Notes under the pieces: model-generated | Told to the model about the DNA's origin: nothing | Databases searched by the model: none | What the model saw: only the letters and a program-made list of their open reading frames with translations | Made by a program: the position numbers and the translations under genes | Assembly: GCA_964449435.1 (NCBI GenBank) | Contig: CAYUYR010000008.1 | Span: forward strand, 6,038-70,037 | Origin: an uncultured Planctomycetaceae bacterium | GTDB lineage: Bacteria > Planctomycetota > Phycisphaerae > Sedimentisphaerales > UBA12454 | Length of the DNA: 64,000 nucleotides | Reading direction: 5' to 3' | In this document: positions 901 through 12,632 of the stretch, one piece after another | How the letters are laid out: each line of letters starts with the position of its first letter | Position numbering within the stretch: position 1 is the stretch's first letter

Positions 901-1524
901 ATGAAGACCGGCAAAAACCACAATAATCATAAAGACAAAATAGACGAGCAGGAGCTGCTTCATCGTTATGTTGCTGGCGACAGGGATGCTTTTCAGCAGC
1001 TTGTAAACCGATATAAAAACCCTCTTTATGCGTTTTTAAGACGTTTTTTGAATCAAACCCAGCTCATCGAGGAAGCCTTCCAGGAGACTTTTCTCCAGCT
1101 CTATCGCAGCCGAAAAACGTTTGAAAAAGACAGGCCGCTAATGCCCTGGCTGTTCACAATAGCCGCTAATAAGGCCAAAGACGCACTAAGAAAACAACAA
1201 AGACGCGATACTATCTCATTAGGCTCTATGACAGAGACCGAAGAATTCGGCGTAGATGACGTCCTGAACTCCCTAAAGTCTTATGATATAACACCTTACG
1301 ATGAGGCGGAAAGGGCAGAAAGGGCCGAAAAAGTACGCAAAATCATCGAAAATATGCCCGAAAATCTTAAAGAAATCCTCATTTTGGCCTATTTTGAACA
1401 ATTTTCTTACAAACAAATGGCGGAGATGTTGCGTATTCCAATAGGGACGGTGAAAAGCAGGCTCCACACGGCCATAGTTCACTTTACTAGAAAATGGAAA
1501 TCTTTGAACAACGAGATTATTTGA
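901..1524 (+). CDS. ECF-type RNA polymerase sigma-70 family factor
   Basis: 207 aa. Region 2 reads LVNRYKNPLYAFLRRFL...EEAFQETFLQLYRS...PWLFTIAANKAKDALRK. The region 4 HTH reads EILILAYFEQFSYKQMAEMLRIPIGTVKSRLHTAIVHF. Its stop overlaps the next start (TGATG). Confidence 0.9.
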   Translation: MKTGKNHNNHKDKIDEQELLHRYVAGDRDAFQQLVNRYKNPLYAFLRRFLNQTQLIEEAFQETFLQLYRSRKTFEKDRPLMPWLFTIAANKAKDALRKQQRRDTISLGSMTETEEFGVDDVLNSLKSYDITPYDEAERAERAEKVRKIIENMPENLKEILILAYFEQFSYKQMAEMLRIPIGTVKSRLHTAIVHFTRKWKSLNNEII

Positions 1525-2582
1525 TGGACAAACTTAACAAGGAGCAACGCGATATTCTACTCGATTACTACTTCGAGTGCGCAGGCCAGCAGGAAAGCGA
1601 AACAGCGAAAGAACTCCTCGAAACACATCAGGGCGCCATCGAATTCTACAACCGACTCAACCACTCGCTCTCTGCGCTGGAACACCTCGACCACGAAGTA
1701 TGCGCATCCTGTCCGGACCACCTCGTCGAAAAAACACTCGATAAACTCTACTCCCATACCGCTAAAACCGAACCGGTGAGCCAACTCGATAAACTCCTTC
1801 AGGCCGAAAGCGAAAAAGTTGTTACCAAACGGCCGAGCTTCTGGCGAAACTTCGCCGAGGCCGCAGCCGTCGCCGCAGGCGTTGTAATCCTCTCGAGTAT
1901 TTTCGTTCCCGTAACAAGACAAATGCGGGCTATGGCCTGGCAGGCAGCCTGTCAGTCAAACCTTGCCAAAATCGCGCAAGGCATAACCAGATACGCAAAC
2001 GACAACAGCAACTCACTGCCCGCAGTCGCTGCAAAAGCCGGAAACCCGTGGTGGAAGGTCGGCTCGACCCAACCGCAACATCAGTCCAATACGAGACACG
2101 TATGGGTGCTCGTTAAAAACAATTACGCCGAGCCGAAACTGTTCGTATGCCCCGGCGGGACAAGAGAAAAACTGCCGATGCTCGACAAGGCACAAATCGC
2201 AAACCTCGCCGATTTTCCGAACAGAAGATATATAACGTACAGCTTTAAACTTATCAGCGAACCAAATAAGGCAAAATACCCGTTAAGCGCAGCGCCTCTG
2301 ATGTCGGATACCAATCCGATTTTCGAGACCTGCCTGCAGAACCCCGGCTGCGTCGATAAAAATGAATTCGACCCGATTACACTTAGCGAAAAATTACTGA
2401 AAATCAACAGCACAAGCCATCGCGGCAGAGGCCAGAACGTTATGTTCAGCGACGGCGCGGTCAGATTCACATCGCAAAGAGTCATCGGCTCAGACGACGA
2501 TATATTTACCGTAAAAGACAGAAAGGTCTATCGCGGCACAGAAACAACAAGCAGCGAATCCGATATTTTCCTCGTTCCGTGA
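1524..2582 (+). CDS. Putative anti-sigma factor fused to a DUF1559 (H-X9-DG, pseudopilin-like) extracytoplasmic domain
   Basis: The ATG at 1524 is translationally coupled to the sigma gene. The N-terminal domain carries a HEVCASCPDH Cys/His motif. One TM helix follows (FWRNFAEAAAVAAGVVILSSIFVPV). The C-terminal body ends in SHRGRGQNVMFSDGAVRF, an H-X10-DG variant of the DUF1559 signature. Confidence 0.7.
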   Translation: MDKLNKEQRDILLDYYFECAGQQESETAKELLETHQGAIEFYNRLNHSLSALEHLDHEVCASCPDHLVEKTLDKLYSHTAKTEPVSQLDKLLQAESEKVVTKRPSFWRNFAEAAAVAAGVVILSSIFVPVTRQMRAMAWQAACQSNLAKIAQGITRYANDNSNSLPAVAAKAGNPWWKVGSTQPQHQSNTRHVWVLVKNNYAEPKLFVCPGGTREKLPMLDKAQIANLADFPNRRYITYSFKLISEPNKAKYPLSAAPLMSDTNPIFETCLQNPGCVDKNEFDPITLSEKLLKINSTSHRGRGQNVMFSDGAVRFTSQRVIGSDDDIFTVKDRKVYRGTETTSSESDIFLVP

Positions 2583-2584
2583 TG

Positions 2585-2626
2585 AAGGAAGTAAGGATGT
2601 AAAGAAGTAAAGAAGCAAGGAAATAT
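2585..2626 (+). repeat. Purine-rich dispersed module (copy 1)
   Basis: aaggaagtaaggatgtaaagaagtaaagaagcaaggaaatat closely resembles the reverse complement of 31073-31106 (aaggaagtaaagaggtaaagaagtaaggaaatat). Confidence 0.6.
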
Positions 2627-2631
2627 GGATT

Positions 2632-2666
2632 AACATCCAACATTGAACATCGAACATTGAACTTCC
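2632..2666. repeat. 5 x 7-bp tandem repeat (AACATYS units)
   Basis: aacatcc aacattg aacatcg aacattg aacttcc, read directly from the sequence. Intergenic. Confidence 0.8.
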
Positions 2667-2700
2667 AATAAGAAGCTGCTTTGGCTGGGAAGTATAAATT

Positions 2701-2734
2701 TCACCACAGAGGCACGGAGAACTAAGAGAATATC
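2701..2734 (-). repeat. Cassette 3' tail module (copy 1)
   Basis: The minus strand reads gATATTCTCTtagttctccGTGCCTCTGTGgtga, about 35 nt after the stop of the 2769-3695 gene. It shares ATATTCTCT and a GTGCyTCTGTG core with 3819-3860. Confidence 0.45.
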
Positions 2735-2768
2735 AAAAATCAAACATTTAACAGGAGAAAATGAAAGT

Positions 2769-3695
2769 TTAATTCATAACAGTATCATATAAGTTATCAA
2801 GTTGCTTTTTATGTTTGACTGATAACCCTGAAACCGTCCATATGATTCGTTGATACATATTACTAAATCGAGGTCTTTGAGAAGGTATATCAATAAGGGT
2901 TGAAGTTGATACAACCACTGATATAATCCGGCTTTTCGAAAAATACTTTTCAAAATGCCTACTGTGTTTATTAAGAAATTTATCATTATTTTTTTGTATT
3001 ATTTCAGCTGCGATATTGGTGTTTCCGGCCTTTAAGACCATATTCTCTGGAAGAAGTTCATCAATATTTATCGCCACGATTCCGAATTCAAATCCTTTTT
3101 CTATCTGACCAACTCCTTCGGATAAAACGTTTTGGACATGTTTTTCTGAATATAATTTCTTACAAGCAATTGCAATATGAGAATCATTGTAATCTATCGT
3201 AACATCTGGTTCTTCCAACTTTACATTCTCAGTTTTTTCTCGAAGCCATGACCAAACTTCCAGTTCCCATAAGAAACTTTTAGCTTCAGACTTCTCTCTT
3301 TTAAAGAAATCAAGAGTGCCTGAAAGTAGTTTTTTGAGATATAGACATTGAGTTTGTTGGTCCTCATTTTGTAAAGGTAAAATTGCCTTTGCAACTCGGT
3401 CCAAATGAAGACAAAGAAAGAAGTTATTCCGCGAGTACTGTTTCCCTGATAATTGGAGTTCCCAACAATTTTTGGTATTTTGAATCATATGAGCAAGCTC
3501 AGACTCTGACTGCAAAACAATGTTTGCTTTTTTATAGAGATTTTCAATTTCAACAGCTTTATCTTTAAGTTTTTGAAAATCGGAAACTTCTGTATTGGCA
3601 GCACTATCGGTCACCCAGCCAGCAGGCACTAAAATTCCTGACGGTCGAATATTCCAAATTTTTTTAACTTGCTTCAATGCTAAAATAACTTTCAT
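2769..3695 (-). CDS. Hypothetical protein (308 aa), no family recognised; weak PD-(D/E)xK-like stretch
   Basis: The ORF is open 2769..3782. The ATG at 3695 (MKVILALKQ) is the first start downstream of the promoter module at 3738-3780. AT-rich. The segment FLWELEVWSWLREKTENVKLEEPDVTIDYNDSHIAIACKK resembles a nuclease core (E...PD...xCK) but lacks the acidic residue of ExK. Confidence 0.7.
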   Translation of the reverse strand: MKVILALKQVKKIWNIRPSGILVPAGWVTDSAANTEVSDFQKLKDKAVEIENLYKKANIVLQSESELAHMIQNTKNCWELQLSGKQYSRNNFFLCLHLDRVAKAILPLQNEDQQTQCLYLKKLLSGTLDFFKREKSEAKSFLWELEVWSWLREKTENVKLEEPDVTIDYNDSHIAIACKKLYSEKHVQNVLSEGVGQIEKGFEFGIVAINIDELLPENMVLKAGNTNIAAEIIQKNNDKFLNKHSRHFEKYFSKSRIISVVVSTSTLIDIPSQRPRFSNMYQRIIWTVSGLSVKHKKQLDNLYDTVMN

Positions 3696-3737
3696 TAAGG
3701 TCTTACTGAAATTATATGTTAACTTTGGGGGATGGGC

Positions 3738-3780
3738 AAAATTATATCTTTTTTTGTTTTTAAAATCAATGGGGAAAAAC
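3738..3780 (-). promoter_or_regulatory. 43-bp promoter module, copy 1 (TTGATT-N17-TATAAT)
   Basis: On the minus strand the -35 TTGATT lies at 3769..3764, the -10 TATAAT at 3746..3741, and the spacer is 17 nt. 41 of 43 positions are identical to 4647-4690. Confidence 0.7.
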
Positions 3781-3811
3781 ACGGAACGAACCCGCCAGCA
3801 GGCAGGCGGGG
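3775..3811 (-). terminator. Hairpin plus T-rich tract downstream of the Abi_C gene
   Basis: The minus strand has cccgcc-tgcctgct-ggcggg followed by ttcgttccgtgttttt. Confidence 0.4.
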
Positions 3812-3818
3812 TAAACTC

Positions 3819-3860
3819 CGAGCACAGAGAGCACAGATCGACACAGAGAATATAGAGAAC
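3819..3860 (-). repeat. Cassette 3' tail module (copy 2)
   Basis: The minus strand reads ctATATTCTCTgtgtcgatctGTGCTCTCTGTGctcgg, about 22 nt after the stop of the Abi_C gene. Confidence 0.45.
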
Positions 3861-3881
3861 GCTGAGTTATTGCCTTTTCTT

Positions 3882-4631
3882 CTATTTACTTCTTTTTTGT
3901 TCCCAAGTTGCTAAAATAAATGTTGCCATTGTTCCTGCTAAATTTACGGCCAATTCAGCATGTCGAGGTAATGGACGAACTGCGACTTTGCTACTCGCAT
4001 GCGCATCACTCAATTTGTTTCTTAAGGAACCTAATCCCTCTATAATTGAATGACATCCACCAAGAATTTGTTTAAACAATCGCTCTGTATGCTGGCTTGG
4101 AGAAAGATTAAGATGATGAGCAACAAGGCTATACAATTTTGGCAAATCGTCTTTGTCCTGATAGGTAATATTACTTTCATCCAGTACATGTTTACAAACA
4201 GCTTCTAGCAGCGTTCTGGCTGAAGTAATTGCACCCTCTGGGTCAGATATTCTTCTATCGAGAGCTTTCTTCCAAGCCATTTGTATAGATGCTGAATCAA
4301 CCGTAGTGAGTTTTTCACTATTCACACTATCGGATGGAGCATGCGAGGATTGCTCCAGAAAGGACAACACAGGATCAAATTGCGCACGTATAAATTCCCG
4401 GCGTTCATCGTAATGAGCAAATTTAGGCTTAATAAATCCCCAAAATTCATCAAGACTTCGACATGACTGGATAAAAATAGGTAATTTTTGATTTAATAAG
4501 GTATTGGCGATAAGTCTTCCTCTAATCTGTTTGTACTCAGCATCAGACGTATTTCCACCAGTTGCTCTTGCTATCAACATATTCTTGAGGCTTTCGACCT
4601 CCATCAATAAGTTTTCAATATCATCAGACAT
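3882..4631 (-). CDS. Abortive-infection-like protein with Abi_C-type C-terminal domain
   Basis: The C-terminal half matches the Abi_C pattern as I recall it: PEGAITSARTLLEAVCKHVL ... IIEGLGSLRNKLSDAHAS ... LPRHAELAVNLAGTMATFILATWE. ATG at 4631 (MSDDIENLL) is preferred as the start. The ORF track begins at TTG 4637. Confidence 0.8.
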   Translation of the reverse strand: MSDDIENLLMEVESLKNMLIARATGGNTSDAEYKQIRGRLIANTLLNQKLPIFIQSCRSLDEFWGFIKPKFAHYDERREFIRAQFDPVLSFLEQSSHAPSDSVNSEKLTTVDSASIQMAWKKALDRRISDPEGAITSARTLLEAVCKHVLDESNITYQDKDDLPKLYSLVAHHLNLSPSQHTERLFKQILGGCHSIIEGLGSLRNKLSDAHASSKVAVRPLPRHAELAVNLAGTMATFILATWEQKRSK

Positions 4632-4646
4632 TGCCAATATTCCTAA

Positions 4647-4690
4647 AAAATTATATCTCTTTTTGTTTTCAAAATCAATGGGGAAAAAAC
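4647..4690 (-). promoter_or_regulatory. 43-bp promoter module, copy 2 (TTGATT-N17-TATAAT)
   Basis: On the minus strand the -35 TTGATT lies at 4678..4673, the -10 TATAAT at 4655..4650, and the spacer is 17 nt. The ATG at 4631 is only about 12 nt from the expected transcription start. Confidence 0.7.
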
Positions 4691-4714
4691 GTGGATTCCC
4701 GCTTCCGCGGGAAT
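4684..4714 (-). terminator. Terminator-like hairpin (8-bp stem, GGAA loop, T-run)
   Basis: The minus strand reads attcccgc-ggaa-gcgggaat followed by ccacgtttttt. It abuts promoter module copy 2. Confidence 0.5.
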
Positions 4715-4848
4715 GACGGACCCTGCCATTGTAATGGCGGGGCTAACCACGAATAGCGGAAAATGTGGAAAAGGCAATAAAAATTGATAGATTCTTCACT
4801 GCGCTGCGCTCCGTTCAGAATGACAATGAGTACGTATATGCGGGATAG

Positions 4849-4873
4849 AAAAAAACATCCTCGCAAAGCGAGG
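4849..4873 (-). terminator. Rho-independent terminator of the DUF502 gene
   Basis: The minus strand reads cctcgc-ttt-gcgagg, then atg, then ttttttt, about 70 nt after the stop at 4942. Confidence 0.55.
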
Positions 4874-4941
4874 TATTCCCCTGCACCCCGATAGGACAGT
4901 TGCGACATCCCACAGGGCAGGCAGGTCAGGGGGTTAAAACA

Positions 4942-5481
4942 TTACTTTCCTGATACACCGCCGGAGACTACGAAGGCCATCGCTTTTGAAACCTTAATGT
5001 CCAACGGAACAACCCGCTCAGCAGGGAAAATCAAAACCGAACCTGCGAAATTGTACGACTGAGGAAAATAAACAGCGACACTTCCGGGCAAAGATAAAAA
5101 TCCCAAATCTTCCTGAGTGATAAAACCAATCGCCTTTGGGCCGCCGACGGTAAGCTCGACAATTACGGGCCTGTCAAAACTTTTTCTTCCGCCGGTAAAT
5201 GCGTCTATTACATCCTTGAGCGATAAATAGAGCAGTTTGACTACGGGCAGGCGAGAAAAGAGCTTGTCAATGAGGCCGAATAATCTATCGCCTATATAAT
5301 TGGAAGCCAAAAAGCCAATCAACGTAATAAAGGCGAGCGCAGCAAGCAGGCCGAGGCCGGGGATGGGGATACTTAAAAGCTGGTCGAATTTTTGGATTGC
5401 CACGACCACAACGAGTACCGTTATGGCGGCTGGGACAAAAACCAAAAGACCCTTGAGAAAATAACCTATTAATCGTTTCAT
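4942..5481 (-). CDS. DUF502 family membrane protein
   Basis: 179 aa. MKRLIGYFLKGLLVFVPAAITVLVVVVAI plus a second TM segment, the typical DUF502 layout. Confidence 0.75.
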   Translation of the reverse strand: MKRLIGYFLKGLLVFVPAAITVLVVVVAIQKFDQLLSIPIPGLGLLAALAFITLIGFLASNYIGDRLFGLIDKLFSRLPVVKLLYLSLKDVIDAFTGGRKSFDRPVIVELTVGGPKAIGFITQEDLGFLSLPGSVAVYFPQSYNFAGSVLIFPAERVVPLDIKVSKAMAFVVSGGVSGK

Positions 5482-5534
5482 AATTTGTTCCTTAACATAT
5501 AAACAAACAAACCCGCCGGATAAACCGGCGGGCT

Positions 5535-6657
5535 TTAGGACTTTTGTCTGTGTTTTTTCTCTGCTCTGTATTGCAGGTAGCTGTCTATAAATTCCTCGAT
5601 GTCGCCGTCAAGGACGGCATCAACTTTTCCGGTCTGGCAGTCAGTTCGATGGTCTTTTACCAACTGGTAAGGCTGAAGGACGTAGCTGCGAATCTGATTT
5701 CCCCATGCGATTTCGCCTTTTGCGCCGTAAAGTTTCGCAACTTCGGCGTCGCGCTTCTGCTGCTCCAACATATACAATTTAGCCTTTAACATTTTGAATG
5801 CTTCGGCCTTGTTGCGGTGCTGCGAGCGGTCGCTTTGGCACTGGGTAACAATTCCGGTAGGCGCGTGGGTGATGCGGACGGCTGAACTTGTTTTGTTGAC
5901 GTGCTGGCCGCCTGCGCCGCCTGCACGGTAAAAATCGATTCGCAAATCCTTTTCGTCAATTTCGATATCTATGTCTTCATCGTATTCGGGCAAACAATCA
6001 ACGGCGGCAAAACTCGTATGGCGTCTTTTGTTGGCATCGAAAGGACTGATTCTGACGAGACGATGGACGCCTGCCTCACAGGAAAGTTTGCCGAAAGCAA
6101 AGGGGCCGGCGACTTTGAGCGTAACGGAACGCAGGCCCGCCTCTTCGCCGGGGGTCATATCAAGCTCTTCGTAAGTGAATTTGTTCTGCTGGAAAAATCT
6201 GGTGTACATCCGCAGGAGCATACTGACCCAGTCGCAGCTTTCCGTACCGCCTGCGCCGGCGTGGATACTGAAAAAGCAATTTTTCGTATCGTCGGGGCCG
6301 CTGAGCAGGCCCGTAAGCTCGATTCGGGCACAATCTTTTTCAAGCCGGATAAGCTCCTGCTCGGAATCGGCGATGATTTGTGCGTCATTTTCGGCAAGGG
6401 CCACCTCAAAAAGCTCGGCGAGGTCGGTGATTTTCTTTTCTGCATCTATTACAGGCTCAATAACGGCTTTTAATGCGCTGAGCCTGGAGACGACCGGTTT
6501 TGCGGAGTCGGGATTATCCCAAAAACCCTGATGAGACATCTGCTCCTGGAGGTTTTGCCTATCGGCGAGTTTGCCGGACAAGTCAAAGCCAGTCCCGGAT
6601 TTTTGTTATCCGGGCCCTGAGGTCGTTAATTCTCTGCTTAAGCTGGGCTAATTCCAT
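5535..6657 (-). CDS. prfB: Peptide chain release factor 2, expressed via programmed +1 frameshift
   Basis: ATG at 6657 opens 24 codons (MELAQLKQRINDLRARITKIRDWL) that end at CTT TGA C. The +1 frame then continues DLSGKLADRQ... into ORF 5535..6581, which carries SPF (SPFDANKRRHTSFA) and GGQ (AGGAGGQHVNKT) motifs. Confidence 0.95.
6582..6588 (-). other. RF2 autoregulatory +1 frameshift site CTT TGA C
   Basis: The minus-strand heptamer cttTGAc contains the in-frame stop at 6585..6583, which is codon 25 from the ATG at 6657. Confidence 0.9.
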
Positions 6658-6793
6658 AATTTATCCCGATTTAATACCGCTCTGAACCCTAAACAATCGA
6701 ATCGTTTTATAACAAATAAAAGGGTCATTTGCAATTGCCAAAAAAAGTTTGCTGTGATAGACTAAACGGCGTGGTTCAGTAAGGAAGCGAAAG

Positions 6794-7750
6794 ATGAAAA
6801 CGGCAAGACTGGGAAATTCGGAACTCGAAATAACAAAGGTGGGCCTTGGGACGTGGGCGATTGGCGGGCCTTGGCTTTACGGATGGGGGCCGCAGGACGA
6901 TAACGATTCGATAAAGGCGATTATCGAGGCGATGGAAGTCGGGGTGAACTGGCTGGATACGGCGCCGATTTACGGGTTCGGACACAGCGAAGAAATCGTC
7001 GCAAAGGCGCTGTCGCAAACAAATATCAAACCAATCATCGCAACTAAGTGCGGGATTGTCTGGAGCAAGACGGTGCAAAGGCAGACCTGCCTGAAGACTG
7101 AAAGCATTATCGCTGAATGCGAGGCATCGCTGAAACGATTGAAAGTCGATGTAATCGATTTGTATCAGATGCACTGGGGCGACCCGGACGAAGATATAGA
7201 AGAAGGCTTCGAGGCAATGGCGAAATGCGTCAAGGCGGGGAAGGTTCGGTATCTGGGCGTTTCAAATTTCAGCGTCGAGCAAATGAAACGCGTGATGAAA
7301 ATTCATCCAATTACATCGCTTCAGCCTCCGTACAGTATGCTGCGGCGGGATATCGAAGATGAAATTCTACCGTTCTGCAAAGAAAATAATATCGGGGTAA
7401 TCGTTTACAGTCCGCTGCTGAAAGGAATGCTGAGCGGCAAGTTCACGGCTGAAAAAGTCGCGGCGCTTGCGGCAGACGATGTGAGACATAAGGACGCGAA
7501 TTTTAAGCCGCCGCTGCTGGATGTTAATCTTAAGATTGTCGAAGGACTGAAAGAGATTGCAAAGCAAAACGGAATTACAACGGCACAACTTGCGATAGCG
7601 TGGACGCTGCGAAATCCGGAAGTAACGGCGGCGATAGCAGGGGCAAGACGAGAAGGACAAATCAAAGAAACGGCGCTGGCGGCAGATATAACGCTATCGA
7701 ACGACGATATAGCTGAAATTGAAGAGCTTTTAAAAACGAGAAAAAGTTAA
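6794..7750 (+). CDS. Aldo/keto reductase family oxidoreductase
   Basis: 318 aa with [26 protein letters not shown] and GVSNFS motifs. Confidence 0.85.
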
Positions 7751-7770
7751 AATTTTCAAGAGGTCTAAAG

Positions 7771-9204
7771 ATGGCCAAAAATAACGATATTTACACGAGT
7801 CCGCTGGTCGAGCGCAACGCATCGAAAGAGATGTCGGAGCTTTTCAGTAATCAGACGAAGTTTTCGACGTGGCGAAAACTCTGGCTTGATCTCGCCAAGG
7901 CGGAAAAGAGGCTCGGTCTGAAAATTTCATCGGCACAAATCAGTCAGATGGCAAAACATCTCGACAATATCAAGTTCGACAAGGCGGCTGAATACGAGAA
8001 GAAATTCCGGCACGATGTAATGGCGCATATTCATACGTTCGGCGATTCTGCGCCGAAGGCTGCGCCGATAATTCACCTCGGAGCGACGAGCTGCTATGTC
8101 GGCGATAACGCGGATTTGATAATTATGCGAAATGCGATGCAGATTATCGCAGGCAAGACAGCGTGTCTCGTAAATTCGCTGGCGGGATTTGCAAAACAAT
8201 ACCGTAATTTGCCGACATTGGGCTTTACACATTTTCAGCCGGCACAATTGACGACTGTCGGCAAACGCGCGGCACTTTGGTGCAATGATTTTGTCAATGA
8301 TTTATACGAAATGGAGTACCGCATCGCAGATATTCCATTCAGAGGAGTGAAAGGCACGACGGGAACGCAGGCATCGTTTCTCGAACTGTTCGGTGGAAAT
8401 CATAATAAGGTCAAACAGCTCGATAAAATGGTCGCAAAGGCGTTCGGATTCGAAAAACTCTGCGCTGTTACGGGCCAGACATATTCGCGAAAGATAGATT
8501 CGCTTGTGATAAATACGCTTGTACAGATTGGGCTGTCGGCTCATAAGATGTGCAACGATATCCGGCTGCTGGCGAGTCTGAAGGAAATCGAAGAGCCTTT
8601 CGAGAAATCACAAATCGGCTCAAGCGCGATGGCATATAAGAGAAATCCGATGCGGTGCGAACGTGTTACCGCCCTTTCGAGATTTTTGATAAGCCTGTCG
8701 AGCAGCCCGCAGATGACGGCGGCGGAGCAATGGCTCGAAAGGACGCTGGACGATTCGGCGAACCGTAGAATTGTAATACCGGAGGCGTTTCTTGCGGCGG
8801 ACGGGATTTTGGAAATTCTGATTAACGTCGCGAGCGGACTTGTGGTTTATCCGAAAGTTATAGCGGCGAGAATAGATTCCGAACTGCCGTTTATGGCGAC
8901 TGAAAATATTCTTATGGCCGCTGTTAAGGCGGGCGGGAACAGACAGAAACTGCACGAGAAAATCAGGGTGCATTCTCAAGCGGCGGCGGCACAGGTTAAA
9001 AAATTCGGAAAGCCGAACGATTTAATCGAACGACTGAAAAACGATGCGGCTTTCGCAAAAGTTGATTTCAAAAAAGTTTTAAACGCAGGCAATTATGTCG
9101 GCAGAGCGCCGCAACAGGTCGATGAATTTATTAAAGAAGTCGTTTCCGGGGCATTGAAAAAATACCGTGGAAAACTCAATAAAAAAACGACACTGAAAGT
9201 ATAA
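7771..9204 (+). CDS. purB: Adenylosuccinate lyase
   Basis: 477 aa with [13 protein letters not shown] and the fumarate-lyase signature [10 protein letters not shown]. Confidence 0.9.
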
Positions 9205-9220
9205 AAGAAAGACGTAAACT

Positions 9221-9745
9221 ATGACCAAGCAAGAACTTGCGAAACGGATAAAAGAGACGGCATATCTTGAGGGAGACTTCACGCTTCGAAGCGGCAAGAA
9301 GAGCAAATACTATATGGATAAATATCTGTTCGAGACGCAGCCGGATATTTTAGAGGCTCTCGGCGCCGAATTCGCAAAGTACGTCAGCGGCGATGTTACG
9401 CTGATTGCGGGGGCCGAGCTTGGCGGTGTTGCGCTGGCGGCGGCAACGGCGATGCATACGGGCAAGAGATGGATAATCGTCCGCAACAGTAAAAAAGACT
9501 ACGGCACGAGCAAGATGATTGAGGGGATATTAAATAAAAATGATGTCGTTCTGCTTGTCGAGGATATCGCAACAACCGGCGGACAGGTTCTTGAGGCGGC
9601 AAAGATAATTACCGAGGCTGGCGCAAAGATAAAAAAGATTGTTTCCGTGATTGACCGCAAACAAGGCGCGGGCGAAAATATCACAAAGGCAGGCTACGAA
9701 TTCGAGAGCATTTTGACTAAAGACGATTTAGGAATAAAAGATTAA
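9221..9745 (+). CDS. pyrE: Orotate phosphoribosyltransferase
   Basis: 174 aa with the PRPP-binding motif VLLVEDIATTGGQ. Confidence 0.85.
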   Translation: MTKQELAKRIKETAYLEGDFTLRSGKKSKYYMDKYLFETQPDILEALGAEFAKYVSGDVTLIAGAELGGVALAAATAMHTGKRWIIVRNSKKDYGTSKMIEGILNKNDVVLLVEDIATTGGQVLEAAKIITEAGAKIKKIVSVIDRKQGAGENITKAGYEFESILTKDDLGIKD

Positions 9746-10358
9746 CAATTCTTTTCGCCAAAAAAGATTTGTCCGCCTTCGGCAAAATAAGCCAATCGCT
9801 GTTTCTGCGTTTGATTTGAACGGTTGATTTTTCGCTGCCGATTGCAGCCGGAGAATTTGCGATTATCATATCGAGATTTTTATCTTTTAATTTTTTCTCG
9901 GCATTCTTTCTTAAATTTTTATCTTCAAGCGCGAAGCCAACTACAGTTTGATTTTTCTTTTTATTCTCCCCTGCCCATTTAAGAATATCAATAGTCGGTT
10001 TCAATTTCAGAACCAAATTTTTGCCGGATTTTTTCAATTTGGTTTTTGATTTTTTTGCAGGTGTATAATCGGATACGGCCGCGGCCATAATCAGGCAATT
10101 GCATTTCCCAAAATGCTCTTTTACTGCTTTAAACATTTGCGCGGCGGATTCGACATAAATAGTTTTGAGTTTTGAGTTTTTAGTTTTGAGTTTCCTGATT
10201 GTGGTTATAAGTGTAACTTTATGACCTGCTTTTACGGCGGCATCGGCGAGAGCGAAGCCCATTTTGCCGCTGCTTGCGTTGGTGATAAATCGAACGGGGT
10301 CGATGTATTCTTTTGTGCCCCCTGCTGTAATAAGGAAATGAATCCGATTAGATTTCAT
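9717..10358 (-). CDS. coaB: Phosphopantothenate--cysteine ligase (stand-alone CoaB)
   Basis: [25 protein letters not shown] motif. The ATG directly follows the coaC stop (AAATAAATG). Confidence 0.85.
10161..10195. repeat. 5 x 7-bp tandem repeat inside the coaB coding sequence
   Basis: agttttg agttttg agttttt agttttg agtttcc. On the minus strand it encodes [12 protein letters not shown], so the heptamer is read in all three phases. Confidence 0.8.
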
Positions 10359-10925
10359 TTATTTTTTCGTTATTTGGCGGAGACGATTTATGATATCGGC
10401 GGGTTCGGACATTCTGCCGATGCCTTCGGTTCCACAGGCTAATCTGCCTTTTTCAGGGCCGATTGTTTCAAAGCCCATATTCTTTAACGTATCAATATTT
10501 TTGCCGACGACGGGATTAGTCCACATTTTTTCGTTCATCGCCGGTACAAAAAGAACCTTTTTCCGCCAGCAGGCACACAAAGTCGTACTCAAAAGGTCAT
10601 CACAAATACCGTTGGCGGCCTTGGCAATGATGTTCGCGGTAGCCGGTGCAACAACGACAATATCAGCGATGTCGGTAAGATGAATATGGTCGATTTGAAA
10701 GCCGGTCGGAGTTTCCCACATACTCGTATAAACAGGACGGGCAGTTACGGCCTCGAAACTCTTTGGCAGAACGAATCTGCAGGCGTTTTCAGTCATAACA
10801 GTATCAACCAAAGCGCCGGCTGCGGTGAGTTTGCTTGCAAGGTCAACGGCTTTATAAACAGCGACGCCGCCGCTTACACCGAGCAGTACCTTCAAACCGC
10901 TGATTACAGAATCATTATGAGTCAT
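10359..10925 (-). CDS. coaC: Phosphopantothenoylcysteine decarboxylase (stand-alone CoaC flavoprotein)
   Basis: 188 aa with LLGVSGGVAVYKA and the PAMN motif (VPAMNEKMW). Confidence 0.85.
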   Translation of the reverse strand: MTHNDSVISGLKVLLGVSGGVAVYKAVDLASKLTAAGALVDTVMTENACRFVLPKSFEAVTARPVYTSMWETPTGFQIDHIHLTDIADIVVVAPATANIIAKAANGICDDLLSTTLCACWRKKVLFVPAMNEKMWTNPVVGKNIDTLKNMGFETIGPEKGRLACGTEGIGRMSEPADIINRLRQITKK

Positions 10926-10936
10926 TGCTTCGAATC

Positions 10937-11167
10937 CTATAATTTGGGGATATCGGCCTTTGGCGATTCCGGGGCATAATCGGCAGTAATTTTGTTCTGC
11001 AGAATTTCCTCGACGACTATTTCCATCATCGTTTTGCCTTCTGTGTTTTCGATAAGCGGCCTGGAGCCTTCGAGAAGTTCTGCCATTCTTTTCTGTATCA
11101 GGGCAGAGACCTTGAACGCGCCGCCGATTTTTTCGAAAATTTCCTTATTCTTCAGTTCATCTATCAT
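10937..11167 (-). CDS. rpoZ: DNA-directed RNA polymerase subunit omega (probable)
   Basis: 76 aa with FKVSALIQKRMAELLEG. It sits in the conserved gmk-rpoZ-coaBC position. Confidence 0.6.
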   Translation of the reverse strand: MIDELKNKEIFEKIGGAFKVSALIQKRMAELLEGSRPLIENTEGKTMMEIVVEEILQNKITADYAPESPKADIPKL

Positions 11168-11170
11168 ACT

Positions 11171-11785
11171 TTATTCTCCGGTTCTTTTAATTATCTGTAT
11201 AACTTCTTCCACCGCTTGTTCGAGATTATCGTTAATAACTATATGTTCATAATGCTGCCAGCCCGCGGCGATTTCAATGCCTGCGCCGGCAAGTCTTTTT
11301 TCGATGTCTTCTTCATCATCCCTGCCTCGTCCGTTTATACGGTTCTGAAGGTCTTTATGCTTCGGCGGCAATATAAAAACCAGTTCGGCTTCAGGATAAA
11401 GTTTTTTTACCTGAACGGCGCCCTGCACATCGATTTCGAGCAGCACAATTTTTCTCTGTTCGAGAGCCTCGACAAGTTTGTCTTTAGGCGTACCGTATAA
11501 ATTCCCGAAGACTTCGGCATACTCGATGAGATTACCGGCCTTTATCTGTTTTTCGAACTCGTCTCTGCTGACAAAATAATAATCTTTTCCGTCCTGTTCG
11601 CCGGTTTTTTTCGCACGTGTCGTGGCTGATATGCTCAGGCAGACGTTATCGAGCCGTTTAAGAAGCTCGCCGCAGATAGTGCTTTTACCTACACCGCTGG
11701 GTCCGCTTATAACTATCACCTGCTGTTTGACAGGGTTGTTCTCAGGATTACTCAACGTTCTGCACCTGTTCCTTAATACGTTCAA
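11171..11785 (-). CDS. gmk: Guanylate kinase
   Basis: P-loop ISGPSGVGKST. The start is uncertain: the ORF start overlaps the yicC 3' end by 38 nt, and an in-frame TTG at 11755 is an alternative. Confidence 0.85.
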   Translation of the reverse strand: MNVLRNRCRTLSNPENNPVKQQVIVISGPSGVGKSTICGELLKRLDNVCLSISATTRAKKTGEQDGKDYYFVSRDEFEKQIKAGNLIEYAEVFGNLYGTPKDKLVEALEQRKIVLLEIDVQGAVQVKKLYPEAELVFILPPKHKDLQNRINGRGRDDEEDIEKRLAGAGIEIAAGWQHYEHIVINDNLEQAVEEVIQIIKRTGE

Positions 11786-12632
11786 TGCAAGTTTTTATAT
11801 CGACGACATCAGAACAAATTTTCGCATCGGAGGCTTTGCTCGCAATGGTGTTCGCTTCGCGCAACATTTCCTGAGCGATAAAATCGAGTTTCCTGCCGGC
11901 ATATTCTTCCGACTGACAGTTCGTGAGAAATTGTTCGATATGCGAAATTAACCTGATAATTTCTTCGCTTATATCGCTTCTGTCGGCGAAAAGAGCCACT
12001 TCCCTTGCAAGAGTCGCGCTGTCAAGCTCAAGACGTGCACTGGCAAGGAGGTCCTTTACGCGTGTGGCGAGTCTTTCCTGATATTCGCCAATAACCACTT
12101 TACTGCGAGATTTAATATCAGCAAGAAGCCCTGTAATTCTATCGCACTGCTGCTTAAGGTCGTCGGCAAGAGATTGGCCTTCCTGTGCCCGCATTTTTTT
12201 GAGCTGCTCAACGGCCTGAGCGGTTACATCGAGGACGGCTTTTCGAACCGTCTGAGCCTTTTCGTTTTCCGGCTCCTGCGGCCTAACGACGCCGGGCAGC
12301 AGAAGCAAATCGGCAAGATTAATACTGCACTGCGTATCGCCGCCGCATTTTACGGAGTTTAATTTTTCCACATAACCGTTCAGAGCGGCCGAGTCGATGT
12401 CGAACATCGGTTCACCGCTGACGTTTTTATAGCGAAGCTGATAATTGGCCGCGCCGCGATAGATATTCTGTCTTAAAAGCTTTTCAATATCATGCTCGAG
12501 AAACGTAGCGGCATCGGGCAGACGGATAGACGGCTTAAAATAACGGTTATTGACCGTTTTTATCTCGACCGCATAGCTTATGCCGTCAATGTCCCGGCAT
12601 ATACGAGCAAATCCTGTCATACTGTTTAGCAT
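11748..12632 (-). CDS. yicC: YicC family stress-induced protein
   Basis: Start MLNSMTGFAR at 12632. The longer ORF extending to 12806 overlaps secG and is rejected. The C-terminal region matches the YicC/DUF1732 layout. Confidence 0.8.
   Translation of the reverse strand: MLNSMTGFARICRDIDGISYAVEIKTVNNRYFKPSIRLPDAATFLEHDIEKLLRQNIYRGAANYQLRYKNVSGEPMFDIDSAALNGYVEKLNSVKCGGDTQCSINLADLLLLPGVVRPQEPENEKAQTVRKAVLDVTAQAVEQLKKMRAQEGQSLADDLKQQCDRITGLLADIKSRSKVVIGEYQERLATRVKDLLASARLELDSATLAREVALFADRSDISEEIIRLISHIEQFLTNCQSEEYAGRKLDFIAQEMLREANTIASKASDAKICSDVVDIKTCIERIKEQVQNVE

Follow-up and report, generated by a model that had tools for sequence, protein, structure and literature searches.

What kind of locus separates the anti-sigma-like gene from the DUF502 gene in an uncultured Planctomycetaceae bacterium (Phycisphaerae, Sedimentisphaerales; GenBank assembly GCA_964449435.1, contig CAYUYR010000008.1), and do the two genes that it contains belong together? 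The window analysed here, which is the whole stretch of 64,000 nucleotides (nt) at positions 6,038 to 70,037 of this contig, holds between these core genes an AT-rich islet with two minus-strand open reading frames (ORFs), designated here geneU (2769-3695; 308 amino acids, aa) and geneA (3882-4631; 249 aa). A model that read the sequence alone had proposed (the original prediction) that the islet is a small defence hot spot, and that geneU is either a novel defence effector or a partner of the Abi_C-type product of geneA. Results of our analysis indicate that the locus is a small defence-type hot spot, and as such a locus of an already known kind, with an uncharacterised cargo family, that of geneU, and a promoter block that is reused. 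We consider it probable, although well short of certain, that positions 2616-4941 form a variable slot in which two foreign genes, separately acquired and separately transcribed, are set in a resident frame of a promoter block and a tail. Immunity has barely been studied in Planctomycetota, and this slot of Sedimentisphaerales represents a clean small hot spot of the defence type, for which the boundaries can be given exactly and two alternative sets of cargo are known. The reuse of the promoter block suggests that the slot guarantees the expression of the cargo that lands in it.

The comparison with related genomes carries this reading. In the sister genome L091 (GCA_017973855.1), as well as in L092 and L003, the genes for lipA, the extracytoplasmic function (ECF) sigma factor and the anti-sigma factor are followed by the slot and then by those of DUF502, prfB, an aldo-keto reductase and purB. 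The left flank (368-2615) is 91% identical in nucleotide sequence to L091 8847-11092, and the right flank (4942-11906) is 89-90% identical to the corresponding regions of L003 and L091. The similarity to the sister genome ends at position 2615, 33 nt past the anti-sigma stop codon, and resumes exactly at 4942. In place of geneU and geneA, the sister slot (L091 11093-14025, G+C content 0.35) contains two different minus-strand genes encoding proteins of 322 aa and 214 aa. The former has an RNSVSH motif of HEPN type and weak matches to CARF_HEPN and Cas13a, and the latter is predicted to have membrane-spanning segments. The two genes may constitute a HEPN plus membrane-effector pair. Inside the slot, the window and the sister genome share just two short blocks, namely a 63-nt tail and the promoter block. 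The tail lies in both genomes downstream of the final cargo gene, which differs between them. The promoter block regions 4647-4706 and 3738-3780 match (90% and 93%, respectively) L091 13751-13808, where the block precedes the gene of the 322-aa protein. In a third relative, with an anti-sigma factor 82% identical to that of the window, the sequence downstream of the corresponding gene is different again, up to the end of its contig, and in more distant relatives the two flanks are not kept together. The sister genes occupy L091 11896-13666, with that of the 322-aa protein first.

The composition of the islet points to a foreign origin. The G+C content of the islet (2583-4941) is 0.377, as compared with 0.473 and 0.484 in its flanks, and is the lowest in the entire 64-kb window. 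G+C falls about 4 standard deviations (sd) under the window mean (0.467, sd 0.03, 900-bp windows). For geneU and geneA the respective values are 0.338 and 0.388, and at third codon positions (GC3) 0.269 and 0.284, as compared with a GC3 of 0.47-0.59 in the flanking genes. The claims of the original prediction that the islet is AT-rich unlike its surroundings, accessory and compositionally foreign, and that it is bounded by positions 2582 and 4942, are borne out by the G+C profile, the ORF calls and the replacement of both genes in the sister genome. The check that it had suggested, whether relatives lack the islet or have other cargo in its place, thus had a positive outcome. The notion of a defence hot spot stands as well, given the conserved core flanks, the differing cargo, the Abi_C domain of geneA and the HEPN-type motif of the 322-aa sister protein. 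Like known defence islands and hot spots, the slot is foreign in composition, flanked by core genes, variable in cargo and populated by defence-associated families. It differs from them by its size of ~2.4-3 kb, with two genes and without integrase, tRNA or transposase, and by an internal frame, the promoter block and the tail, that persists while the ORFs change.

The features of the slot and of its borders, to which the further text refers, are as follows.

1494-2582, plus strand: anti-sigma-like gene, the left core flank (ORF; homologues of ~352 aa, 97% of the query covered), which pairs with the ECF sigma gene 901-1524; its true start is probably 1524 (MDKLNKEQ...), giving a 1-base overlap with the sigma stop codon as in the sister genome.
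2583-2615, no strand: final 33 nt of the left-flank similarity (blastn against L091); the variable slot extends from ~2616.
2683-2745, no strand: tail block that is resident in the slot and lies at its far end, 95% identical to L091 11784-11846, with the dispersed repeat CACCACAGAGGCACGGAGAAC; a 29-nt piece of it recurs in L001, and within the window it is present in a single copy.
2735-3740, minus strand: geneU cassette as a transferred unit, as delimited by its match in L001 (the ORF, 45 nt upstream with its own promoter and ~34 nt downstream).
2769-3695, minus strand: geneU, whose family is uncharacterised and has a PD-(D/E)xK-like core (homologues, invariant residues, AlphaFold2 model).
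3711-3739, minus strand: own promoter-like site of geneU, TTGCCC-17-TATAAT (scan), kept upstream of the L001 homologue.
3738-3779, minus strand: promoter block copy 1 (T-run, TTGATT, 17-nt spacer, TATAAT), a repeat 93% identical to L091 13751-13793.
3781-3810, minus strand: terminator-like hairpins after geneA, CCCGCC..GGCGGG and then GCGGG..CCGT, which run into the T-run of block copy 1.
3882-4631, minus strand: geneA, encoding an Abi_C/HEPN-type 'abortive infection family protein' (Pfam, PHROGs, motif).
4647-4688, minus strand: promoter block copy 2, upstream of geneA, the positional equivalent of the single copy in the sister genome.
4695-4714, minus strand: GC-rich hairpin ATTCCCGCGGAAGCGGGAAT followed by a T-run, a dispersed repeat type with related copies in L001, L027 and L052.
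4716-4752, minus strand: hairpin element (GTTAGCCCCGCC...GGCAGGGTCC) resembling repetitive extragenic palindromic (REP) sequences, dispersed in related genomes, with four matches in L001 and one in L093 at the lipA insertion site.
4859-4873, minus strand: terminator-like hairpin and T-run downstream of the DUF502 gene (fold z-score -2.74).
4942-5481, minus strand: DUF502 gene (PF04367, E 4.9e-27), the right core flank; the similarity to the sister genome begins exactly at its stop codon.

As had been proposed, the two minus-strand genes appear to be separate transcription units, with a hairpin, a T-run and promoter-like sites between geneA and geneU. The remaining intergenic DNA of the slot consists of hairpin repeats dispersed in related genomes. 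Neither an Rfam family nor a tRNA was detected in the intergenic parts of the islet, and the short ORFs within 4643-4908 were rejected as genes, being translations of the hairpin repeats. Further repeats were observed close to both edges of the slot. A short tandem AACATYGAACATTG lies near the anti-sigma side in both slot versions (window 2632-2659, L091 ~11661-11690). At L091 13955-14013 and at the end of L003, just after the DUF502 stop codon, there is a tandem ~30-nt repeat CCCTGCGCTGTCGCTTGGGCTCTGA, and it is at this repeat that the contig of the GTDB representative assembly breaks off.

The closest relatives of the two cargo genes point to different origins. The geneU cassette (3740 to 2735) aligns over 1007 nt, with 84% identity, to L001 3589-4595, where the homologue of geneU occupies a different chromosomal site, between the DUF2062 and isoleucyl-tRNA synthetase genes of another Sedimentisphaerales metagenome-assembled genome. 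The shared segment includes the TTGCCC-17-TATAAT promoter and excludes the 42-nt promoter block. Similarly, from 9 nt before its ATG (4640 to 3891) geneA is 85% identical in nucleotide sequence to a gene that is not accompanied by the block and adjoins a Shedu gene; this closest homologue (84%; L111 4766-6753) is located 65 nt downstream of an SduA_C-domain gene with a G+C content of 0.31. All three known cargo junctions accordingly lie at most 6 nt from the 3' end of the block. The best explanation of these alignments is that geneA and geneU are foreign and were acquired separately, and that the block apparently belongs to the slot rather than to the cargo. In the window, geneA is bracketed by the two block copies, which are 909 nt apart.

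The block itself is a direct repeat, the two copies of which are identical at 40 of 42 positions (95%) and read on the minus strand TTTTTCCCCA-TTGATT-17 nt-TATAAT-TTT. Ten of the 12 promoter consensus positions are matched, with a 17-nt spacer. Only these two copies are present in the 64 kb, and 100 shuffles gave 0 matches. A GC-rich hairpin lies ahead of each copy, the block beginning with the T-run of this hairpin, and the hairpin region ahead of copy 2 (4689-4800) has a fold z-score of -3.25. The hairpin/T-run with a near-identical sigma-70 module, which the original prediction had placed before each gene, was in this way recovered as a 42-nt repeat, and its second repeat, a similar 3' tail after each gene, was not. 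The two tails share a loose CTCTGTG-type motif and were left unpaired by the repeat search. We rejected them as a true repeat pair; it is instead with the sister genome that the tail block of geneU is shared (95%). A 16-nt near-palindrome TTGATTTTAAAAACAA overlaps the -35 region (TTGATT) of the block at 3754-3769 and 4663-4678 and could be a site at which a regulator or a recombinase binds.

Because promoter-like hexamers occur in the islet region at the level of shuffled sequences (7 observed vs. 7.0 expected), the assignment of the block as a promoter is based on its position and conservation, each of its three instances lying just upstream of an ORF on the same strand. In the explanation that we propose, the resident frame would be formed by the 42-nt terminator-promoter block on the DUF502 side and the 63-nt tail on the anti-sigma side. 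Whatever lands in the slot would be expressed, since the foreign ORF-bearing segments start no more than 6 nt away from the block's 3' end. New cargo might be added by recombination of block-bearing DNA into the resident block, which would fit the location of geneA between two copies 909 nt apart. The platform of integrons (Pc + attI) offers a partial parallel. The slot shares with it a fixed resident promoter, unrelated ORFs just downstream and a cassette between direct repeats. It differs by the lack of an integrase ORF and of an attC-like element, by a repeat that is a promoter and lies 5' of the genes, by the fact that only three instances are known, and by one cargo, geneU, which brings its own promoter.

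Some results speak against such a role of the block. It is known from three instances in two genomes, ahead of three different genes. A strict pattern of it gave 0 matches in metagenome and viral contigs, and a relaxed pattern matched merely two Firmicutes lgt promoters, which were rejected as unrelated. No recombinase was found among the ORFs near the slot, and no integrase, tRNA target, transposase or recognisable attachment site in the islet and its immediate flanks. The least improbable of the rival explanations, which we regard as unlikely, is that the block is a dispersed repeat similar to REP sequences or to miniature inverted-repeat transposable elements, or a chance AT-rich duplication, with neither promoter nor capture function, and that the cargo is swapped solely by ordinary homologous recombination in the core flanks. 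The abundance of dispersed hairpin repeats in the slot, the chance level of promoter-like hexamers in this AT-rich region, the promoter that geneU carries itself and the lack of a nearby recombinase would all agree with it. However, a repeat of this kind accounts poorly for the 90-95% conservation of the three instances next to unrelated cargo-side sequences, for their constant position immediately 5' of a co-oriented ORF, for the clustering of all three cargo junctions at the 3' end, for the 10 of 12 consensus positions with the 17-nt spacer, and for the restriction of the block to two copies in 64 kb, with no further copy at any other site in the 112 fetched loci.

The assignment of geneA confirms the Abi_C-type C-terminal domain that had been recognised in 3882-4631. 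Residues 164-240 of its product match Pfam Abi_C (PF14355) with E 9.5e-21 and 74.1 bits (cut-off 24). The ORF is intact and of full length relative to the family, of which over 5,000 homologues exist; those in other phyla retain 57-60% identity, and the NCBI name is 'abortive infection family protein'. Across 22 homologues (56-84% identity) R204, D209 and H211 of RNKLSDAH do not vary, and the R204-x6-H211 arrangement fits the Rx4-6H signature of HEPN proteins. Like the lactococcal AbiJ, geneA has the Abi_C C-terminal domain, the R-x6-H motif and homologues in defence islands and on plasmids. It differs from AbiJ in its N-terminal part, as its alignment to the PADLOC AbiJ model is confined to the C-terminal part of that model (117 positions, 163-279 of 281), the N-terminal ~125 residues of geneA have no match to this model, and a full-length match to AbiJ proper was not obtained. 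The whole geneA product fits instead phrog_23253 (full-length match, 3.7e-74) and the very large family mentioned above, and no experimentally tested protein with precisely this architecture was found. On plasmids and metagenome contigs, the neighbours of geneA homologues include a helicase-methyltransferase (restriction-modification) pair and genes of DUF4435, PLD, PIN, ABC-three-component and Shedu SduA_C proteins.

Less favourable to the HEPN assignment is the structural evidence. The AlphaFold model of the geneA product is all-alpha, with a predicted template modelling score (pTM) of 0.53 and a predicted local distance difference test score (pLDDT) <50 in the motif region, and a Foldseek search gave no hit with E<0.001, Csm6 HEPN proteins appearing at ranks 14 and 19 (TM-score 0.24-0.30). 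Because of this pTM and the lack of significant Foldseek hits, the HEPN fold of geneA stays a predicted one. Taken together, the profile matches and the conserved motif support the view that geneA is a genuine member of the Abi_C/HEPN family. By analogy to this family, its product would probably be an RNase of Rx4-6H type, kept inactive and released by an infection cue to cleave RNA and stop the growth of the infected cell.

No counterpart of comparable clarity is available for geneU, which, as had been stated of 2769-3695, resembles nothing nameable: its product has no match in Pfam or NCBIfam, none in PDB by sequence and none by Foldseek. A word-indexed search nevertheless revealed 179 homologues, and an exhaustive profile search 1,247 cluster representatives at E<=0.001. 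Members of this family are nearly all single-domain proteins of ~300 aa, encoded by Sedimentisphaerales, other Planctomycetota, Candidatus Manganitrophus and Stagnimonas, and, at 24-27% identity to geneU, by large conjugative plasmids of Pseudomonas, Burkholderia and Agrobacterium. The GenBank phage set contains no member of the family, and IMG/VR gave three matches. With ~1,200 clusters (50% identity) in several phyla and on conjugative plasmids, the family is widespread, although its distribution is patchy. It has neither a Pfam/NCBIfam annotation nor a PDB relative; its predicted fold is confident, and its invariant residues form a compact set.

The AlphaFold2 model of the geneU product (pLDDT 87.6, pTM 0.87) comprises a helix at 137-154, strands at 158-161, 164-169 and 172-180, a helix at 184-197 and a strand at 204-210, which in this predicted structure is the alpha-beta-beta-beta-alpha-beta order of the PD-(D/E)xK core. 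Residues that do not vary in the alignment of homologues, which reaches down to 21% identity, are K139, W143, E144, P163, D164, C178, K179, K180, S183, Q197, G205, A208 and F240. Glu144 lies on the helix, P163-D164 opens the second strand and the Lys is on the third strand of the core. For comparison, the relevant known enzymes are the solitary Type IV (modification-dependent) restriction enzymes and the PD-(D/E)xK variants of Cfr10I/NgoMIV type with the 'PD...SxK...E' arrangement. The product of geneU shares with PD-(D/E)xK nucleases the predicted order of elements, the helix Glu, the Pro-Asp pair, the strand-3 Lys and the single-gene unit. It differs from them by Ala or Cys before the Lys and by an N-terminal beta-hairpin and helical bundle without an assignment. 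No significant similarity to known PD-(D/E)xK members was found in sequence or structure.

At the putative catalytic centre, the acidic position of the (D/E)xK motif is Ala or Cys (A177 or C178). Because of this replacement we infer the nuclease function from the remaining features of the core and describe geneU as a putative PD-(D/E)xK-like nuclease; E184 or D212 is a possible substitute acid. The similarity to previously proposed defence candidates is weak. The PADLOC profile PDC-M15A matches 6 of 34 geneU family members (best E 2.4e-4, ~48 of 260 profile positions) and the geneU product of the window with 14.6 bits and E 0.005 in the motif region (residues 131-179), PDC-M41A weakly matches 3 of the 34 in the same region, and PDC systems are themselves only candidates, put forward because they occur embedded in known systems (bioRxiv 10.1101/2024.01.29.577857). 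Apart from this weak likeness, the M15 candidate comprises several genes, in contrast to the solitary geneU, for which no confident hidden Markov model match to PDC-M15 and no partner gene were found. Family members have scattered weak matches in Pfam, PHROGs and PADLOC, those in PHROGs being unnamed.

The genomic neighbourhoods of geneU homologues were inspected in ~10 independent contexts (L001, L002, L086, L088-90, L104-105, L106-107, L108 and three plasmids). One of them contains three integrases, a PIN toxin-antitoxin pair and AbiEii, another an HTH/ImmA pair, and on an Agrobacterium plasmid the homologue lies near TIR, DUF4238, toxin-antitoxin and integrase genes. To be set against these are several contexts that hold housekeeping genes only. 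When the products of the neighbouring genes were compared by BLASTP with each other and with geneA, no conserved neighbour was found, and geneU appears to be a solitary module. On this circumstantial evidence, its association with defence is suggestive and its role as a novel defence effector plausible. Most likely, it would act as a stand-alone, nucleic-acid-cutting accessory or defence protein, in the manner of a solitary modification-dependent restriction enzyme.

A different role of geneU, which we find doubtful and place second among the alternatives, is that of a non-defence accessory of mobile DNA, serving plasmid establishment, anti-defence, addiction as a toxin, or repair and recombination as a nuclease, which landed in a permissive slot. 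The distant plasmid homologues are surrounded by hypothetical genes and in one case adjoin a DnaE-like polymerase gene, a defence neighbour is missing from several chromosomal contexts, and the family is nearly absent from phage collections, observations that speak for such a role. On the other hand, a HEPN gene lies in the slot beside geneU, HEPN-like cargo is present in the sister genome as well, some of the contexts are typical defence or mobile islands, and the motif region is weakly similar to PADLOC candidates. Quite improbable, in our opinion, is the far stronger proposal in which the block would be an integrase-free, promoter-equipped capture site that gains new cargo by recombination, and in which geneU would give rise to a new family of stand-alone defence nucleases whose PD-(D/E)xK site carries a Cys or Ala substitution.

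The answer to the second part of our question, whether the two genes belong together, is most probably negative. Their adjacency on the same strand in the window, together with the frequent occurrence of partners of HEPN toxins, would be in line with a single two-gene defence or toxin-antitoxin system, in which geneU could be the sensor, effector or antitoxin for the HEPN protein. This adjacency is seen in the window alone, as none of the geneU homologues in the inspected contexts adjoins an Abi_C gene. The closest homologues of geneA adjoin other, unrelated genes, and the nearest relatives of geneU and geneA are found in different genomes. Moreover, the gap of 186 nt between the genes contains a hairpin, a T-run and two promoter-like sites. 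Distant homologues of both genes do occur together on the Pseudomonas plasmid pBYT1-1 (NZ_CP072560.1, 9344-10069 and 69921-70541), at a distance of ~60 kb from each other, which is also at odds with one system, and the BYT-5 plasmid likewise carries distant homologues of both. The part of the original prediction that made geneU a partner of the Abi_C protein is consequently not upheld, and we consider a two-gene system very unlikely.

Equally remote is the view that the islet is a decaying remnant of an old mobile element with non-functional genes, for, AT-rich, repeat-laden and devoid of mobility genes as it is, both its ORFs are intact and of full length relative to their families, catalytic-type residues are kept in both proteins, and the ratios of nonsynonymous to synonymous substitution rates (0.13 for geneU and 0.13-0.20 for geneA) place both genes under purifying selection.

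Outside the slot, the only other stretch of the window with a G+C content below 0.40 is 9601-10600. It was rejected as a second island because it contains a coaB-type flavoprotein gene that is also collinear in the sister genome. A difference from the sister concerns lipA, a gene that is truncated by the left border of the window and has its end at 820. At 256-367 this gene has an in-frame insert, VISTEVPTGRDEAEKSKKQISRLTSGSLEMTR, where the sister genome has SVSPANTLGGS. The insert, a hairpin-repeat-like element that leaves the frame open, is 24 codons longer than its counterpart in the sister. Other repeat elements are present at the same point in the sister genome and in L093, and the element of L093 resembles window 4714-4751. 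A second small variable spot was noted within the same genus, in the interval between the ferredoxin and nitroreductase genes (L091 1849-2432 vs. L093 2647-2892), which holds a HepT-like/nucleotidyltransferase toxin-antitoxin pair in one genome and a GIY-YIG gene in another.

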